Source: a bacterium (GTDB taxonomy: Bacteria > Hydrothermota > UBA3073 > JACQXS01). From it: a DNA stretch of 64,000 nt. Location: contig JAUWHX010000012.1 in NCBI GenBank assembly GCA_030605695.1, positions 31,483 to 95,482 on the forward strand. Direction: 5' to 3'. The first letter of the stretch is position 1, and every line of letters starts with the position of its first letter. Below the pieces are notes generated by a model. It saw only the letters and a list, made by a program, of their open reading frames with translations. It ran no database searches and was not told the DNA's origin. A program made the position numbers and the translations under genes. Of the stretch, positions 5,292-64,000 are shown piece by piece.

Positions 5292-5454
5292 TTTGGTTCC
5301 CTGCAGCGTTTGTGATGGGTTGCGATTCTTGAGCCAGCAACTTTTAAAAGGGAGCTGTCTTGAGTAAACAGACGGTACCCACCTTTTTTTAGGGTTCAAA
5401 GATGTCTTCCTACACGGCACTTGCGGGGAACTTTTTTTAAAAAACCACAAATGG

Positions 5455-26802: not shown

Positions 26803-29201
<2,399 letters not shown>

Positions 29202-29328: not shown

Positions 29329-30831
29329 ATGAAAGTTGTTTTGGCTGGTATTAATGTTCCCGTAAAGGTTCTTGAGGATTTGCCGGAAGAGGAAAAGAAA
29401 AAAGCAACCCCAGAGGTAATATCTGCGGCTTATGCCAGAATAAGCAGAAGCGAGAAAGATGTTGATGAATTGGTTGATGAGTCCATAGAAGATATTTCTA
29501 AGGCAAGGAAATCAAACGAGACAATTATTTATGGTATGGGACATCATTCGGTTGCTGACCATACCATTTTTAACTTAAATATAAAAGGTGTTTCAAGACT
29601 CCTTGTAGAATCAATAGAGAAAAGAAGATTAGCAGGATATACCGAAAAATCCCAAAGATATGTTACATTAGACGGTGATTATGTCAAGCCAGAGGAGTTT
29701 AGTTTAGAGGATTTGGCGAAATTTGATGAGCTTGTAAAACTTCAAAATGATTTTTATTTCAAAGCTAATCCGAAGCTTTTTGAATTCTTAAAGAGGAAAT
29801 TTCCTAAGAGAAACTTGAGAGAATTAGAAGGCAGTGCAAAAGAAGATGCGAGATATAGTTTGTGCTTAGCAACTGAAGCCCAGCTTGGGTGTTCTTATAC
29901 GGGGCAGACAGCAGAGCTGGCAATAAGAGAATTAAAGTACGGCAGATTAAAAGAGGAGAGAGAGTTTGCTAAGTTGTTGTATGATGCGATAGTAGAAAAA
30001 GCCCCTTCTATAATTCAACTCACTGACCCAGAATTATTTAAGCAACACAATCCGGGACAGGAATTAAAAGATGATAATTTTAAATATACAGAGAATAATT
30101 TAAGAGACTTGGTTGAAAAAAGCTTTAATCAATACAAGAATTTAGGAAGTAAAAATTCAGGAGAAGATGTAGCTTTTGTAAGCCACAATAATCCGGACAG
30201 ACAAATCATTGCGGCTTTGTTGCACACATATTCAAAAAAGCCAACAAATGATTGCTATATTCTGGCAGATAAATTGCTTGATGAAGGAAAAGCCAAAGAT
30301 TTTGTTAAAGACTCCCTAAAACACATCAGCGAATTTGATAAAGTCCCACGAGCATTTGAAACTGGCTTCCTAATTTATGAAGTTATTGTAAGTAGCAGCT
30401 GTTTTGCACAGATAAAGAGGCATAGGATGAATACTCTCTTAAGTCAGGACTACGACCCTGAACTTGGATATATGATTCCACCAAATATTGAAGAAATCGG
30501 GTTGTCGCAAGAGCTAACGGATGTTTGCGACAGGTCTGTTGATTTGTATAATGAATTTAGAAAATATGGGAAGGCAGCTGAATATTGTTTGACAAATGCA
30601 CACAGAAGGAGAGTAGTTGTTGCAACAAACATAAGGCAGCTATATCACATTTCAAGAATAAGAGAGGACGAGACTGCACAGTGGGAGATTAGAGATAAAA
30701 CAAGCACAATGTCAAAATTGGCAAGGACAGTGGCTCCTATTACAACTATGCTTCTTGGCGGCAAGCATAACTTTAAAAACATTCATTCTCGGGTAATGAA
30801 AAAGAAGGGAGTTAAAGCAAGGGGGTATTAG
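29329..30831 (+). CDS. thyX: double-domain (fused) ThyX-like flavin-dependent thymidylate synthase
   Basis: 500 aa. N-half GMGHHSVADHTIFNLNIKGVSRLLVESIEKRRLAGYTEKSQRY (RHR degenerated to KRR, SQRY kept). C-half FAQIKRHRMNTLLSQDY (RHR-x6-S kept). Confidence 0.7.
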   Translation: MKVVLAGINVPVKVLEDLPEEEKKKATPEVISAAYARISRSEKDVDELVDESIEDISKARKSNETIIYGMGHHSVADHTIFNLNIKGVSRLLVESIEKRRLAGYTEKSQRYVTLDGDYVKPEEFSLEDLAKFDELVKLQNDFYFKANPKLFEFLKRKFPKRNLRELEGSAKEDARYSLCLATEAQLGCSYTGQTAELAIRELKYGRLKEEREFAKLLYDAIVEKAPSIIQLTDPELFKQHNPGQELKDDNFKYTENNLRDLVEKSFNQYKNLGSKNSGEDVAFVSHNNPDRQIIAALLHTYSKKPTNDCYILADKLLDEGKAKDFVKDSLKHISEFDKVPRAFETGFLIYEVIVSSSCFAQIKRHRMNTLLSQDYDPELGYMIPPNIEEIGLSQELTDVCDRSVDLYNEFRKYGKAAEYCLTNAHRRRVVVATNIRQLYHISRIREDETAQWEIRDKTSTMSKLARTVAPITTMLLGGKHNFKNIHSRVMKKKGVKARGY

Positions 30832-31469
30832 TCAACTACTGTTGAATCCTCGTTTTTTCGTTTGAATAAAAGTGGAAAGAGCATCCCGGTTGTCTTCCGA
30901 TAAATTTTATATTCCTCGCCAAAGACTTCTATAAGTAGATTTTCCTCTAATTTTGCTTGCATATACAACAAAGGTAGCAAAATCACAATGAGTATCAAGA
31001 AAAAGAAGTTCTGGGAAAGCAAAAACAGTCCAATGTACGCCAAAACTCTTGATGAGTAAAGGGGATGTCTAACATAACGATATAATCCAGTTTTAACGAT
31101 TTGATGCCCGTCCTTCAAACGAGACCATCGTGCCGCACTAAATTCACCCAATGATAGAATTCCCCACCAAGCCAAGATTATCCATAGAGTCAACGATACC
31201 ATTCCTACTAATTGGAGGAAAGAGTTAAGTTGGTAGGATAGGGCTACGAGAAAGTTTTCGTCCCTAATAAAAAAAAATGCGAACACAAAGATAAAAAATA
31301 CAAACATGCGGTCAAACACTGCGGTTATAAGTGTCAACAATCTGGGTGTTCTTGGCATTTCGGAGCTTGGATTTCGGCGTCTGCTCACCTTTGTATATAC
31401 TATCATAAGAATCAGGAATGCACTGATTAGGAGTATTAAGAAAACTTTCACAAAAAGAGGATTCAACAT
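30828..31469 (-). CDS. isoprenylcysteine carboxyl methyltransferase (ICMT)/phospholipid methyltransferase family membrane protein
   Basis: Multi-TM. GLYRYVRHPLYSSRVLAYIGLFLL signature. Start is either ATG 31469 (preferred) or TTG 31499 (track). Overlaps the convergent thyX end by 4 nt. Confidence 0.7.
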   Translation of the reverse strand: MLNPLFVKVFLILLISAFLILMIVYTKVSRRRNPSSEMPRTPRLLTLITAVFDRMFVFFIFVFAFFFIRDENFLVALSYQLNSFLQLVGMVSLTLWIILAWWGILSLGEFSAARWSRLKDGHQIVKTGLYRYVRHPLYSSRVLAYIGLFLLSQNFFFLILIVILLPLLYMQAKLEENLLIEVFGEEYKIYRKTTGMLFPLLFKRKNEDSTVVD

Positions 31470-31559
31470 TCCAAATACTTTAAACCAACTTTTTAGCAAG
31501 TCAAGAACTTTTTCTAAAATAATTCATTTTACCACCCCATACTCATTAAAAAACTATGT

Positions 31560-31748
31560 CAAGTGAAATGTTCACCAACACAAGCGAGAAATTCACTTGG
31601 TCAAGTCAAGTATTCACTATGCCAAGTGAGAAGTTCACTATGCCAAGCGAAATGTTCACTAATGCAAGTGAAATGTTCACTATGTCAAGTGAAAGTTTCA
31701 CTTGGTCAAGTGGAATGTTCACTGAAGGTAGTGAAATGTTAGCGGAAG
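31560..31748. repeat. tandem array of 8 good and 1 degenerate 21-bp units, each with the 15-bp palindrome AGTGAA-N3-TTCACT
   Basis: Units start at 31560, 31581, 31602, 31623, 31644, 31665, 31686, 31707 and 31728 (degenerate). Examples: CAAGTGAAATGTTCACCAACA, CAAGCGAGAAATTCACTTGGT, CAAGTGAGAAGTTCACTATGC, CAAGTGAAATGTTCACTATGT. Confidence 0.9.
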
Positions 31749-31761
31749 GTAGGAGCAACTT

Positions 31762-32628
31762 TCAGTTGCGACCCTTAATTGTATTATCGCAGGTAAAACC
31801 TGCTCCTACTAGAATCTGATATGCGGCAGATAAGAACTGATACACTTCGTTTGAATTCCTGCAAAAATACTGTGCACTTGAGTTCTCTCTATTACCGACT
31901 ACTACGGATATTTCTTCCTTCCCCAAAACCTTAAAAGCATCTTCGTCGGTGAGGTCATCCCCAATATAAATTCTTAAGGTTTTATTGGTAATGCCACTCC
32001 GTGGCGAATCAAGCAATTCGGAGACTTTTGATATGGCTTCCCCTTTATTCCAGTCAATAATGGGTCTTATCTCATAAACTTTTTTCCCTCTGCCAATACA
32101 AAATATCTTACTATAAGGGCTTACTATCTTAGATACTATATTTCTTATCTCTTTTGCAGATTTTCCAGTAACCAACCGATAATGAATGCTCACGATTAAT
32201 CCTTTGTCTTCTATTAGAACCCCGGGAATCTCTTTGGCAAAACCTTTCACATCGGAGAGAATCTTTTTTATCATAGGTCTAATTTGAGTAGTTGCTGGGT
32301 GAACCCAGTATTTCTCTCCACTCCATTTTGAAGGTCGTGGTGAACCACATTCTATTTCAAGTCCATGATTCCCTATATATATAATCCCCTCAATATCAAT
32401 CAAATCTTTAATTTCTTTAAACGACCTGCCTGTGACTATGGCTAAATAAATTTTTGGAAGGCTCGAGAGCTTCTTTATCAGCTTCCTTGCGGAAATAGGC
32501 AAAACCGCCAGTTCAGGTCGAGATTTAATTGGGACAAGCGTCCCATCGTAATCCAAGAACAAAAAGACTCTCTCTGCAGACTGAACTTTTTTTTCTACCT
32601 CTTTTATTTCTTCAAAGAGGCATTTCAT
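31762..32628 (-). CDS. otsB: trehalose-phosphate phosphatase-like HAD hydrolase
   Basis: FLFLDYDGTLVPI, AIVTGRS, GNHGLE, YIGDDLTDEDAF. Confidence 0.8.
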   Translation of the reverse strand: MKCLFEEIKEVEKKVQSAERVFLFLDYDGTLVPIKSRPELAVLPISARKLIKKLSSLPKIYLAIVTGRSFKEIKDLIDIEGIIYIGNHGLEIECGSPRPSKWSGEKYWVHPATTQIRPMIKKILSDVKGFAKEIPGVLIEDKGLIVSIHYRLVTGKSAKEIRNIVSKIVSPYSKIFCIGRGKKVYEIRPIIDWNKGEAISKVSELLDSPRSGITNKTLRIYIGDDLTDEDAFKVLGKEEISVVVGNRENSSAQYFCRNSNEVYQFLSAAYQILVGAGFTCDNTIKGRN

Positions 32629-38336: not shown

Positions 38337-40010
38337 ATGATGGTAATGCGTAAATTGAGAAAAAAGATGAGAGTATTTCTATGGTTTGCTATCGTTGTAT
38401 TTGTAGCTGGAATGACTGCTATGATGGTGGGTGGCGGAGGACGAAAACCTACTCCAACAGAACAAGGAAAAGTTGGCGAAATTTACATAAAACCAACTTC
38501 TGCTTGGCAGAAAATGAAGAGATGGACTCGCAAAGAGAAAATACCTCTTTCTTATCGGGACTACTCAAATCTCCTTGAACACTACAAGAAACAGGGAATC
38601 CCAGCTTGGAAATGCAAGAACCTTGCTTTCAGCACGCTCGTAGAAGAAGCTTTGGTAATTCAGGAGATGAAAAAGAGAGGAATTGAACTTACAGATGAAG
38701 AAGTTGTTGAGATCATTAAAAATAATCCACCACCTGAATTATTACAGGACACTCTTCTCCTTACAAACGGTGAGTTTGATTATAATAAATACCTTGCTAT
38801 TATATCTGACCCATCGAACACTAAATGGCTCCAGTCTTATGAACTCCTCATAAGAAGTCAGATGCCAAGAGAAATCCTATATCAAACTATAACATCAGCG
38901 GCAAGACCTACAACCATTGACCTTATTGAAGCTTATGCTCATTCCCACTTGAAACTTACACTGGAATACGCACTAATCCCGAACCCCGAACCCCGAACCC
39001 CGAACCCCGAGTTGTTGGAATACTACAATACTCATCAGGATGAATTTATGCTTCAAGAGGAGCCAATTATAAATTATGTTGTCTTTCAAGTTCCAATCTC
39101 CGCAGAAGATGAAGATTACACAAAAGAAATTGCTCAGGAGATTGCAGATTTTGCACAGGGAGGTGCTTCCCTTGACAGCTTGGCAATAGAATACGGCTGT
39201 CAAATCATACAAACTCAATCCCAAACACCGAACACCGAACACCGAATCACGAAAAAAGACGACGGATACCACATAACAAAAGAAGATAAAGAATTAATCT
39301 TACCTGTCCGACCGTCTGATGAAAGCTTTGTGCTCACAGAAGACAAAGCCTCCGATTTTATATCTGCCGCTAAATCCGATTTCCTCTCCGCCGCAAAATC
39401 CTATGATTTAAAAGTCCACAAAGGTGCGGGTTATGAACTGCCTATCCCTGCCGACCTCTCTTACATTAACCTTGCTGAAAAAGATAAAATTATAGGCCCC
39501 ATTGAAGGACTTAATTGCTTTTATGTCCTACATACTCTTGGAATACAAGAATCTCATACTCCGGAATTCTCTACCCTGTCCGATAAAGTGCGAGATAAAT
39601 ATCATCACTCCAAGGCACAAGAACTTGCCCAAAAACTACTTGACAAAACAAAGGGTAGGTTGAAGCCCTCGTTTCAACCTTTCAAAGAAGTCTTACAAGC
39701 TAACGGATTTCCCGTCGAAACCCGGGAATTTTCAGCAGGGGCGATTCACGAATCGCCCATCCAACAGGAAATTTTCCTCAAAGCTTCAAATCTTCCTGAG
39801 AACGAAACCGGAATAGTGTCAACCGAAGATGGCATTTATCTCGTTCATTGCTTAAAGCACGAAAAACCAATCCAAGAAGAAATTGAAAAAGCTATTCCCG
39901 AAGTGTATCCTGACTGGATAAAAGAGGAAAAGGAAATGATTTACGAAGAGTGGCTTGCGAACCTAAAAACATCTGTAGACATAAAAGACTACCGATACAA
40001 AATCCACTAA
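38337..40010 (+). CDS. membrane-anchored periplasmic chaperone of the PpiD/SurA N-terminal-domain type (no clear PPIase motif seen)
   Basis: 557 aa. AGGAGG upstream. N-terminal TM (VFLWFAIVVFVAGMTAMMV) and PpiD-like architecture. Family call is tentative. Confidence 0.55.
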   Translation: MMVMRKLRKKMRVFLWFAIVVFVAGMTAMMVGGGGRKPTPTEQGKVGEIYIKPTSAWQKMKRWTRKEKIPLSYRDYSNLLEHYKKQGIPAWKCKNLAFSTLVEEALVIQEMKKRGIELTDEEVVEIIKNNPPPELLQDTLLLTNGEFDYNKYLAIISDPSNTKWLQSYELLIRSQMPREILYQTITSAARPTTIDLIEAYAHSHLKLTLEYALIPNPEPRTPNPELLEYYNTHQDEFMLQEEPIINYVVFQVPISAEDEDYTKEIAQEIADFAQGGASLDSLAIEYGCQIIQTQSQTPNTEHRITKKDDGYHITKEDKELILPVRPSDESFVLTEDKASDFISAAKSDFLSAAKSYDLKVHKGAGYELPIPADLSYINLAEKDKIIGPIEGLNCFYVLHTLGIQESHTPEFSTLSDKVRDKYHHSKAQELAQKLLDKTKGRLKPSFQPFKEVLQANGFPVETREFSAGAIHESPIQQEIFLKASNLPENETGIVSTEDGIYLVHCLKHEKPIQEEIEKAIPEVYPDWIKEEKEMIYEEWLANLKTSVDIKDYRYKIH

Positions 40011-40270: not shown

Positions 40271-41578
40271 ATGTTTGATATAAAATTTACAAGAGAGAAT
40301 ATAGAGCTCATTAATCGTGGCATCAAAGAAAAGGGCGAAAGTGTTGACATCAATAAATTTATTAAACTTGATGAGAAAAGAAGAAAACTCATAGGAGAAA
40401 TAGATGATATAAGGAGAGAGAAGAAAAAACTCTCTCAAGATGTAGCTCAACTTAAAAGAGATGGCAAGGATGCCTCTAATCTGATTAGCGATTCAAAATC
40501 CCTGTCAGAGAAGGAGAAGAATTTGGATAGTGAGCTACAAGATGTTAATTCGGGTATTCAGGAGATAATGGCAGGCATACCGAATTTAGCACACCCAGAT
40601 ATCCCTCGCGACAAGGAAACAGTGGTGAAGGAGTATGGAGAATCAAGTGTAGGGGTGTTAAATTTAACGCCCCCACGAACTGCAGATGAACTTTGTGATT
40701 CCCTTGAGATACTTGATTTTAGCAGAGGAAGTAAGATAGCCGGCACAAACTTTCCTTGTTATCTGGGACTTGGAGCAAGACTTGAGCGTGCACTTATTAA
40801 CTTTATGCTTGATTTGCATATAAAACAGGGATATACAGAAGTATTTCCGCCATTCCTTGTAAATCGGAAATCGATGTTCGGGACAGCTCAACTGCCAAAG
40901 CTTGAGGACGATATGTATTTTATCCCCCGGGAGGAACTTTTTCTAAATCCGACCGCAGAAGTTCCACTTGTAAATCTGCATCAGGACGAGACTTTGAAAG
41001 CAGATAGCTTACCGATTAAGTATGTTGGCTATGCCGCCAGCTTTAGAAGAGAAGCAGGTTCCTATGGCAAGGAAACACGCGGATTAAGGAGAGTTCATCA
41101 ATTTAATAAGGTGGAACTAATAAAATTCACATCCCCTGAGAATTCTTACGAGGAACTTGAGTCAATGCTGAAGGATGCAGAGGAGGTTCTAAAATTGCTT
41201 GGGCTCAGGTATCGTGTATTGCTTCTTCCCGTGAATGACCTCAGTTTTGCATCAAGCAAGACTTATGATATAGAAGTCTGGGCTCCTGCAAGTCAGGAAT
41301 GGCTTGAAGTATCTTCTGTAAGTAATTGTGAAAGCTTTCAAGCACGGCGAGCAGGAATTAGATTTAAAAAGTCGGCAGTCCACAGTCCACAGTCCACAGC
41401 TGACAGTCGGCAGTCGGTGGGCTCTAAAACTTCATTTGTCCATATTTTAAATGGTTCAGGAGTGGCAACCCCACGCACATTTATTGCCCTTATAGAGCAG
41501 TATCAAGAAAAAGACGGGACCATCAAGGTTCCAGATGTCCTCATCCCGTATATGGGCGGGATAGATAAAATCAAGTAA
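40271..41578 (+). CDS. serS: serine--tRNA ligase
   Basis: 435 aa. N-terminal coiled-coil arm. Class II motifs [24 protein letters not shown] and [18 protein letters not shown]. Confidence 0.95.
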
Positions 41579-42813: not shown

Positions 42814-43389
42814 ATGAAAGAAGATAGAAAAGAGGGTATTATTGAGACTGCACGAGACTTATTTGCACGATTCGGTTTCAAGAAGACTACCGTTGACGAG
42901 ATTGCCAGAGCTCTTCACATGGGTAAAAGCACAATCTACTATTACTTTGAAACCAAAGAGGATATTTTTAAGGCGGTGATAGAGAGAGAGAGTAAATTCT
43001 TGGCTATGAAAATCAAGAAAGCTGTAGACAAAGTAACTTCTCCAGTGGAAAAACTGCGGGTATTTATACTAACAAGGATGCAGTGTCTCAGGCAACTGGC
43101 TAATTTTTACAGTGTACTTAAAGATGAATATTTAGAGCATTACTCATTTATTGAGAAAGTAAGGAAGAGGGACTTTGAAGAAGAAATTGAAACGATAAAA
43201 ACCTTTCTAAAAGAAGGAGTGGAAAAAGGTATTTTTGCTATCAAAAACCCACGATTGACTTCCTTTGCAATTGTTACTGCCTTAAAAGGATTAGAATATC
43301 CCCTGACAATAGGAACTAAAACGACAGACATCAAAAGAAATGTTAATATCTTGTTAGAAACCTTGTTTAACGGGGTAAAAAAGAGATAA
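42814..43389 (+). CDS. TetR/AcrR-family transcriptional regulator
   Basis: 191 aa. N-terminal HTH ARDLFARFGFKKTTVDEIARALHMGKSTIYYYFETKEDIF. Confidence 0.85.
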   Translation: MKEDRKEGIIETARDLFARFGFKKTTVDEIARALHMGKSTIYYYFETKEDIFKAVIERESKFLAMKIKKAVDKVTSPVEKLRVFILTRMQCLRQLANFYSVLKDEYLEHYSFIEKVRKRDFEEEIETIKTFLKEGVEKGIFAIKNPRLTSFAIVTALKGLEYPLTIGTKTTDIKRNVNILLETLFNGVKKR

Positions 43390-63702: not shown

Positions 63703-64000
63703 TTCCAGGTAATACATTAATTTTTGGAACCACAGATAAACGCTGATGCGCGCAGATATAGATTAACCACAAAGGGCACAAAGAAATACAAATTACACGA
63801 AAAAGATTAGTACACAGATTCACCCCGTTTCCGTGCGGAACGGGGTTCACACAGATTAAAAAGATAATCACAGAATGGGCTGATGGGTTAAGAGTTCAAA
63901 GGGTTTAAAGGTTCAAAGGGCTAGGAGTTTAAGGGTTTAAAGGGTTAGGGGGTTAGAGTTTTTCGGGTTTGGGGTCGCGGGTCATCAGGTCTCGTATCCC
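63703..64000. repeat. tandem word repeats ending in a G-tract-rich block
   Basis: CCACAGATAAACGCTGATGCGCGCAGATATAG, CCACAAAGGGCACAAAGAAATACAAATTACACG, hairpin CCCCGTT-TCCGTGCGG-AACGGGG, then GGGTTAAGAGTTCAAAGGGTTTAAAGGTTCAAAGGGCTAGGAGTTTAAGGGTTTAAAGGGTTAGGGGGTTAGAG..GGGTTTGGGGTCGCGGGTC. Confidence 0.8.

Follow-up and report, generated by a model that had tools for sequence, protein, structure and literature searches.

A tandem array of 21-bp units between otsB and an ICMT-family gene as a candidate modular intergenic repeat of the WOR-3 lineage

The otsB-ICMT spacer and its neighbourhood

The DNA analysed here, a single stretch of 64,000 nucleotides (hereafter the window), carries on its minus strand the gene order DUF5752, TreT, otsB, array and ICMT/PEMT-family gene, with Pfam support for each gene. 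The gene upstream of the array, otsB, encodes a trehalose-phosphatase (31762 to 32628, minus strand), and the downstream gene encodes a membrane methyltransferase of the ICMT/PEMT family (30828 to 31469, minus strand; start at ATG 31469, as in the relative L001). The spacer between them holds eight head-to-tail 21-bp units (31560 to 31727; consensus CAAGTGAAATGTTCACTATGT), followed in register by one degenerate junction unit (31728 to 31748; GTAGTGAAATGTTAGCGGAAG). An end module (31531 to 31559, minus strand) lies on the ICMT side of the array, and a 61-bp GTAG-tagged, REPIN-like palindromic dimer (31749 to 31809; GTAGGAGCA...TGCTCCTAC) adjoins it on the otsB side. These parts recur in other genomes: the junction unit is kept beside GTAG elements in L227, L229 and L231, and the end module is common to the window, L229 and L227.

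The initial annotation had described a non-random array of 21-bp units, and this was upheld by repeat detection, pattern matching and shuffling. TRF reported a period-21 array at 31553 to 31752, while the pattern AGTGAA-N3-TTCACT, with up to two mismatches allowed, matched 11 times in 64 kb, a count that none of 100 shuffles attained; eight of the 11 matches lie in exact 21-bp register (31562 to 31723). The distances given for the array, 14 nt from the otsB stop codon (31764 to 31762) and about 55 nt from the ICMT −35 hexamer (31504 to 31499), also hold. Each unit is laid out as a tag NNAG, the hairpin TGAA-ATG-TTCA, CT and a free linker of 4 nt. The linker between palindromes, first described as 8 nt, is actually 6 nt (21 − 15), and its CA is invariant in the window, where the invariant positions of the unit are CAAG (1 to 4) and TTCAC (12 to 16). 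With linkers of 4 to 6 nt, the array differs from CRISPRs, whose repeats are parted by unique spacers of about 26 to 72 bp. Intrinsic DNA curvature was considered as the source of the 21-bp period and rejected: in an approximate wedge model with parameters after Bolshoy and Trifonov (1991), the arrays fell at the 65th to 96th straightness percentile, except for L227 at the 8th, and controls behaved as expected.

The adjoining 61-bp element consists of two inverted arms, each formed by GTAG-GA, a 6-bp stem and a 3-nt loop (ΔG −6.2 and −8.6 kcal/mol). Its 23-nt arms, set 15 nt apart, are 78% complementary, and folding of the complete element gives −21.2 kcal/mol (z = −4.7). It thus has the unpaired terminal GTAG, the 6- to 13-bp stem and the short loop that define GTAG-REPs (PMC3733652), and, with inverted REPs and the tags outside, the head-to-head arrangement of a REPIN. 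The window copy is identical to one in L227 at 59 of 61 positions, and is absent from L231 and L001. Two more GTAG...CTAC dimers with different interiors occur in L227 and L229, and the three different dimers, with 6- to 9-bp stems and 3- to 5-nt loops, fit the description of head-to-head GTAG-REP dimers (PMC3733652). A census of about 72.6 kb of the source genome yielded one full and one half copy of the window dimer, with kin at other loci in L227 and L002. The isolated half copy (TGCTCCTAC) matches a GTAG arm and lies at 917 to 925, about 15 nt upstream of tRNA-Val (941 to 1016).

The dimer also encodes the end of otsB, namely its final 15 codons and stop codon (31762 to 31809, minus strand; VGAGFTCDNTIKGRN). 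In relatives, otsB stops three or four codons past ...YQIL or ...YPII (reading ...YQILRK, ...YQILIKQ or ...YPIIRKQ before the stop codon). Compared with these, insertion of the GTAG dimer, specific to the window lineage, has evidently rewritten the otsB C-terminus, with the last three or four codons giving way to 15 new ones. Elsewhere in otsB, a small palindromic element (GTTCACCACGACC...CCACGGAGTG) is inserted in frame at two sites (32305 to 32346 and 31978 to 32016); the window has insertions of 27 nt and 15 nt, L231 has 51 nt and L233 45 nt, and L001 has none. They resemble the in-frame palindromic-element insertions in genes known from Rickettsia.

Downstream, the ICMT-family gene has a native promoter-like site of its own, TTGACT-16-TAAAGT (31477 to 31504, minus strand), which is kept in relatives with and without the array. 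Its −10-like TAAAGT, ending at 31477, is only 8 nt from ATG 31469, and the same arrangement is found in L001 and L231; so short a gap suggests a leaderless mRNA.

Beyond the spacer, the neighbourhood is one of housekeeping genes (ligA, tmRNA, thyX, ileS). Rfam placed tmRNA (tag peptide DETFVARAA) at 28856 to 29201 and 6S RNA at 5295 to 5433, and the thyX product (29329 to 30831) is a ThyX of 500 aa with a duplicated domain. Tandem repeats of short words (7 to 9 bp) are unusually common at many intergenic sites of the window (70 TRF rows in 64 kb), with CCCGAAC ×4.7, CAGTCCA and AAGGGTTTA as examples and 38978 to 39010, 41370 to 41416, 1161 to 1315 and 63890 to 63949 among the sites; similar word repeats occur in L227 and L234. 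The dnaA gene lies about 34 kb from the array (L236:9892-11205), about 1.3 to 2.6 kb past the window end, so that a replication origin may be situated near the window's right end. GC skew in the window tracks gene orientation and gave no replichore signal by which to assign the replication strand.

This setting bears on the initial suggestion that the array is iteron- or centromere-like. With its asymmetric core and its roughly 21-bp direct repeats, each spanning two turns of the helix, the array resembles plasmid-type iterons or a partition centromere of the sopC/parC kind, bound by Rep or ParB/ParR. However, the context is a housekeeping one, no rep or par gene was found among the flanking genes, the 10 small window ORFs or the precomputed neighbour annotations, dnaA is far away, and BLAST gave no similarity to the array in 72,556 plasmids or 50,697 phages. 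Since the array is also absent from the closest relatives (see below), we regard a replication or partition role as highly improbable.

Conservation within the 21-bp unit

Unit statistics were pooled over 29 good units from four arrays (window, L231, L227 and L229), which are not independent of one another. Variation among these units is strongly heterogeneous across positions (χ2 = 129.5, p = 5e-18): A3, G4, T12 and C16 are invariant and CT occupies positions 16 and 17 in 28 of the 29, whereas four linker positions are near random. Every unit begins with NNAG, as CAAG in 21, ATAG in five, GCAG in two and TAAG in one, and GTAG is found on degenerate end units only.

The palindrome itself is not what is conserved. 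An exact right arm (TTCACT) is present in 25 of the 29 units and an exact left arm (AGTGAA) in nine (Fisher p = 0.004); perfect palindromes make up seven of the 29 units, and no compensatory pair was seen in any of them. In the window, two of eight units are perfect palindromes and the remainder have one or two mismatches; conservation within the 15-bp palindromic core of the initial annotation is asymmetric. A symmetric operator for a dimeric HTH regulator was rejected on this unequal conservation of the arms (25/29 versus 9/29), and the unit reads rather as an asymmetric recognition site. The conserved blocks, AG, TTCACT 11 bp on and the next AG 10 bp on, share a single helical face, as would be expected for protein binding. 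A protein-binding array, as first suggested, is in this respect plausible.

The same units were considered as RNA. It had been proposed that the array is transcribed as the otsB 3′ UTR, and a transcript of either this kind or an antisense RNA might use its hairpins to stabilise mRNA or to titrate an RNA-binding protein. No terminator separates otsB from the array, and the 276-nt region folds well below its shuffles on both strands (z = −6.9 and −6.7); a strong fold equal on both strands is, however, automatic for palindromic repeats. Individual unit hairpins are weak, with −4.3 kcal/mol as the most stable value and 0 in variant units, and the stems lack compensatory changes. When G·T pairs are allowed, all six pairs are intact in 18 of 29 units on the plus strand and in 10 of 29 on the minus strand. 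The corresponding bias in G·T-compatible changes (14 versus 5, p = 0.064, from units that are not independent) is suggestive only, and the favoured strand is antisense to both genes. In L227, moreover, the array comes after a terminator-like hairpin and before a promoter, and no Rfam family reached threshold even in a permissive search (best MIR2934, 32 bits versus 100). A role as a transcribed hairpin string is accordingly very unlikely.

An 87-codon open reading frame with SEMFT repeats (31556 to 31819, plus strand) spans the array and the GTAG dimer, running antisense to the otsB end. The initial annotation had noted this frame and held its openness to be uninformative, with which our results agree. 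No stop interrupts the frame in the window, L227 or L231, and gene callers have called it in other assemblies (P0121, P0122 and a 68-aa call in L009), as might be expected if the array coded for a small heptad-repeat protein, (SEMFTxx)n. But L229 has an in-frame TAA, the ORF ends differ in every copy and the L231 ORF is only 40 aa long. Three-base periodicity is lacking: non-consensus counts at codon positions 1, 2 and 3 are 45, 39 and 41, and the TTC codon is never TTT in 29 units. The predicted C-terminus is the GTAG dimer and antisense otsB. No Pfam match was obtained, and no true homologue was present among 1.84 billion representatives. Searches with the repeat ORF and with a three-sequence profile recovered P0121 and P0122 as the only true relatives, the other 85 representatives being unrelated low-complexity heptad proteins. 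The array is non-coding, and a protein product is scarcely credible.

The array in relatives and at an unrelated locus

The distribution of the array does not follow that of its flanking genes. The closest relatives by TreT and otsB DNA (93-95%), L001 and L233, have an otsB of 262 and 277 aa, respectively, and an otsB-ICMT spacer of about 80 bp from which the array is absent. The more distant L231 (89-91%) has an orthologous array of five good and two degenerate units without the 61-bp palindrome; it is collinear with that of the window except for a clean 63-bp (three-unit) indel, the window being longer. In L232, the ancestral otsB 3′ flank is common with L001, and a different 21-bp array stands further downstream. 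The window otsB 3′ end (SAAYQIL) is itself closer to L231 and L232 than to L001. Such patchiness relative to the flanking-gene tree points to loss or to recombinational exchange of spacer alleles.

The array in L232 (1889-2056) belongs to a second, unrelated family (fam2), with eight 21-bp tandem units of the form TC(C/T)GTTAATAA(G/C)TTAC(G/A)GAnn downstream of otsB. Stem position 2/16 covaries among the fam2 units, as C-G in two and T-A in four.

Searching with the 87-aa repeat ORF led to a homologous array elsewhere. The called proteins P0121 and P0122 derive from L227/L228 and L229/L230, orthologous loci of two other MAGs, in a site among small genes annotated without function near Por-secretion-tail protease genes. 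L227 and L229 each carry eight or nine units of the window's 21-bp family in the same register. The window array is collinear with that of L229 over all nine units (about 80% identity), and both contain the same variant units in the same order: AGCGA..., then TTCACTTGGTC, then AAGTCAA. The two loci agree in the order of their modules and in how these are oriented to the flanking genes, running from the 3′ end of the upstream gene through at least one GTAG dimer, degenerate units (AGTGAAATGTTGGCGGAAG, GTAGTAATTTATTGGCGGAGG), n × 21 bp and an end piece of about 30 bp to the start of the downstream gene. The combination of end piece, five to nine units and degenerate/GTAG end is thus present at two unrelated loci in four genomes, which is modularity of the BOX type.

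A collinear homologue with ordered variants at another locus implies that the array was copied as an already diversified block and did not expand in place in the otsB-ICMT spacer. Acquisition of a pre-formed block is likewise indicated by its absence from the closest relatives and presence in the distant L231, by the match of the window's GTAG dimer to one in L227 (59 of 61 positions), and by the shared module order and polarity. With two independent loci only, a single segmental duplication could also have been the source. Within the second locus, the flanking gene is 96% identical between L227 and L229 and the arrays only 83%; linkers have been swapped en bloc (TGCCCATAG versus TTGGTCAAG) while the core was retained, a pattern of concerted evolution under constraint on the core.

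These comparisons can be set against a neutral minisatellite, in which slippage or unequal crossover would have generated an array with no sequence-specific function and core conservation would merely reflect homogenisation. The richness of the genome in short tandem repeats, copy-number change by unit multiples, dispensability in the closest relatives and the similar identity of units (92%) and adjacent spacer (91%) between the window and L231, which indicates no extra constraint, are all in keeping with such an origin. Homogenisation works on whole units, though, and yet linkers are near random while AG and TTCACT are nearly invariant; the core has also outlived en-bloc linker replacement in L227, and at both loci the array is accompanied by GTAG elements and by the same end module. 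We therefore consider a neutral origin quite unlikely.

The end of the array coincides with promoter-like sequence. Where the first unit meets the end piece in L227 and L229, the two make up TTGACA-16-TATGAT, which matches 11 of 12 positions and is directed at the downstream gene, whose Shine-Dalgarno sequence and start codon follow about 25 nt past it; the −35 sits inside the terminal unit. The corresponding motif is decayed in the window (TTGACA at 31562 to 31557, N15, TATGGG at 31541 to 31536) and in L231 (TTGACC-15-TATGTG), both of which have the native ICMT promoter 33 nt downstream of it. In the fam2 array of L232, the last unit holds a −35-like TTAACA as part of a weak promoter match (9/12). 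An array thus abuts a promoter-like −35 at three loci and in two unit families, and in L227 it is placed between a terminator-like hairpin and the promoter.

This adjacency at three loci is the principal support for the main rival explanation, a host regulatory platform whose units would be tandem sites for a transcription factor or nucleoid protein acting on the abutting promoter, with promoter and array duplicated as a cassette into the otsB-ICMT spacer. The placement of conserved blocks on one helical face at intervals of 10 to 11 bp, the near-consensus promoter with its −35 in the terminal unit (L227 and L229), the recurrence of a −35-like hexamer, weak as it is, in the unrelated fam2 array, the L227 arrangement and the persistence of the core through concerted evolution would all be expected of it. 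On the other hand, the closest relatives have no array upstream of ICMT yet the same ICMT promoter, the cassette promoter has decayed in the window and L231, and the genes downstream at the two loci are unrelated. There is also no adjacent regulator gene, and no matching site was found upstream of the sole nearby HTH gene (TetR family, 42814 to 43389, 11 kb from the array). On balance we regard a host platform as a minority possibility, though one to be taken seriously. The initial idea of a promoter-upstream binding platform therefore gains from the near-consensus promoter at the second locus, but a set of operators or activating sites dedicated to ICMT is unlikely: the same array stands at an unrelated locus, and its absence from close relatives, named beforehand as evidence against such a set, is what was found.

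Further copies of the array were sought more widely. None was detected in about 72.6 kb of the source genome (the window plus an extension of about 8.6 kb), and in a metagenome scan that called for two adjacent units with intact invariant positions, none of 93 returned loci carried the unit. In the Logan assembly made from the same sample (SRR14876850), a break falls within the array (L009:5868-6016). An unrelated metagenome contig (L168:1-560, Ga0049107_10157526) has at least 27 copies of a 21-bp unit, CAAGTGAGATATTCACCC(C/T)GT, which agrees with the window consensus at 16 of 21 positions and includes a frame-shifting 20-bp unit; given that 93 loci were screened, the resemblance is probably due to chance. 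A periodic TTCACT pattern was also tried on viral contigs and discarded as too unspecific, since its more than 120 matches were all unrelated period-7 or period-21 repeats.

Proposed reading and comparison with known systems

We propose, as the reading that we hold somewhat more probable than not, that the array belongs, as a single copy, to a small family of intergenic repeats in the WOR-3 lineage, modular and non-coding and similar in kind to BOX and BIME elements, with units that are putative protein-recognition sites. Along the direction of the flanking genes, such an element would comprise one or more GTAG dimers, one or two degenerate units, n × 21 bp and an end piece of about 30 bp, the last of these forming with the last unit an outward sigma-70-type promoter that would be intact at the other locus and decayed in the window. 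The unit would be an asymmetric site presented on one helical face, in a minimal REP format of guide tetranucleotide, hairpin and CT. Binding or processing of the unit would most likely fall to a sequence-specific protein acting for the element, such as an HUH enzyme of the RAYT type, or to a general protein that binds DNA. Presence/absence and copy-number polymorphism in 63-bp steps and the remodelled otsB end accord with a modular repeat of this kind, and the array boundaries in the window, L231 and L229 coincide with the edges of GTAG elements; by inspection, no terminal inverted repeats or target-site duplications were recognised at these three boundaries. Against the modular-repeat reading, stems of good units are only 4 to 6 bp and their tags are CAAG, ATAG or GCAG instead of GTAG, and an array abutting a promoter-like −35 also fits a host regulatory role.

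A bolder variant, which we put forward as speculative and judge unlikely, is that WOR-3 genomes contain a previously undescribed class of portable promoter-upstream cassettes. These would be mini-hairpin sites arrayed head to tail at a constant period of 21 bp, or two helical turns, from two or more unrelated families (AGTGAA...TTCACT and CYGTTAA...TTACRG), coated on one face by a dedicated protein, such as a domesticated HUH/RAYT-like enzyme or a nucleoid protein, and moving together with a promoter and GTAG REP dimers.

REP/BIME, BOX, Correia elements and other small interspersed repeats influence both the expression of genes and the plasticity of genomes, and, to our knowledge, are known almost only from cultured Proteobacteria and Firmicutes. 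The modular repeat proposed here would place an interspersed repeat of known bacterial type in a phylum where none has been described, and it joins bona fide GTAG-type palindromic dimers with a strict 21-bp head-to-tail array in an uncultured candidate phylum. The element can rewrite the end of a gene, as in otsB, and at the other locus a near-consensus promoter takes its −35 from it. Should a RAYT-type enzyme turn out to act on its units, no REPs more minimal than these would be known, and they would illustrate how tandem arrays can arise through such enzymes; should they be bound by a host factor, the element would be a portable regulatory cassette. In practical terms, short-read assemblies break at the array, as L009 does, and spurious ORFs are called in it (P0121, P0122).

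Among known systems, iterons and sopC-type centromeres likewise consist of tandem direct repeats about two helical turns long, in which the core is conserved and the spacer varies, and they too may overlap a promoter. For the window array, in contrast, no rep or par gene was found among the genes checked, and it has neither an AT-rich unwinding element nor the context of DnaA boxes; it occupies a chromosomal housekeeping setting, with absence from close relatives and a second, unrelated locus.

REP families go with a cognate RAYT (Y1/HUH transposase) gene in the same genome, for the most part with REPs on either side of it. No RAYT gene was found in the 72.6 kb available, and no RAYT, Y1 or HUH transposase was present among the 10 small window ORFs or the precomputed Pfam matches of neighbouring genes. 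GTAG-tagged REPs, REPINs and BIMEs have been described from Enterobacteria, Pseudomonas and Stenotrophomonas (PMC3733652, PMC3116915, PMC8266576), and WOR-3 is not among the described phyla. The 61-bp element and the two others in L227 and L229 are REPIN-like as GTAG...CTAC head-to-head dimers, and also in their position, which is extragenic or at gene 3′ ends between co-directional genes, and in being polymorphic between relatives. As in REP/BIME clusters, palindromes are mixed with reiterated flanking DNA. The 21-bp unit recalls a REP in its tetranucleotide ending in AG, short hairpin and CT. In one characterised RAYT system, only the guide A3G4 is selected, pairing with the CT cleavage site (PMC8266576), and the invariant AG and CT of the 21-bp units mirror this guide and cleavage site. 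Good units are, however, tagged CAAG, ATAG or GCAG and lack the conserved GTAG, GYAG or GTRG of REPs; they all point the same way and repeat every 21 bp exactly, unlike BIMEs, in which REPs and inverted REPs take turns across defined linkers, and REPs are seldom arrayed head-to-tail (PMC3733652). Copy number is also low, with one array in about 72.6 kb.

A structural parallel may also be drawn with pneumococcal BOX elements, organised as boxA-[boxB]n-boxC (PMC3049150). No sequence relationship exists between the two: boxB is 45 bp long and not a 21-bp mini-palindrome, neither the terminal inverted repeats nor the target-site duplications of BOX were recognised for the window array, and there are more than 100 BOX copies per genome. 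In both, nevertheless, distinct end modules enclose a variable number of tandem internal modules, and, like the array, BOX elements are dispersed and intergenic, vary in length between strains by module number, and contain frames, open on either strand, that end up annotated as spurious CDSs (PMC3049150). BOX elements can also alter the ends of genes and can affect the expression of genes downstream (PMC3049150), a likeness to the rewritten otsB end and to the promoter motif at the array end.
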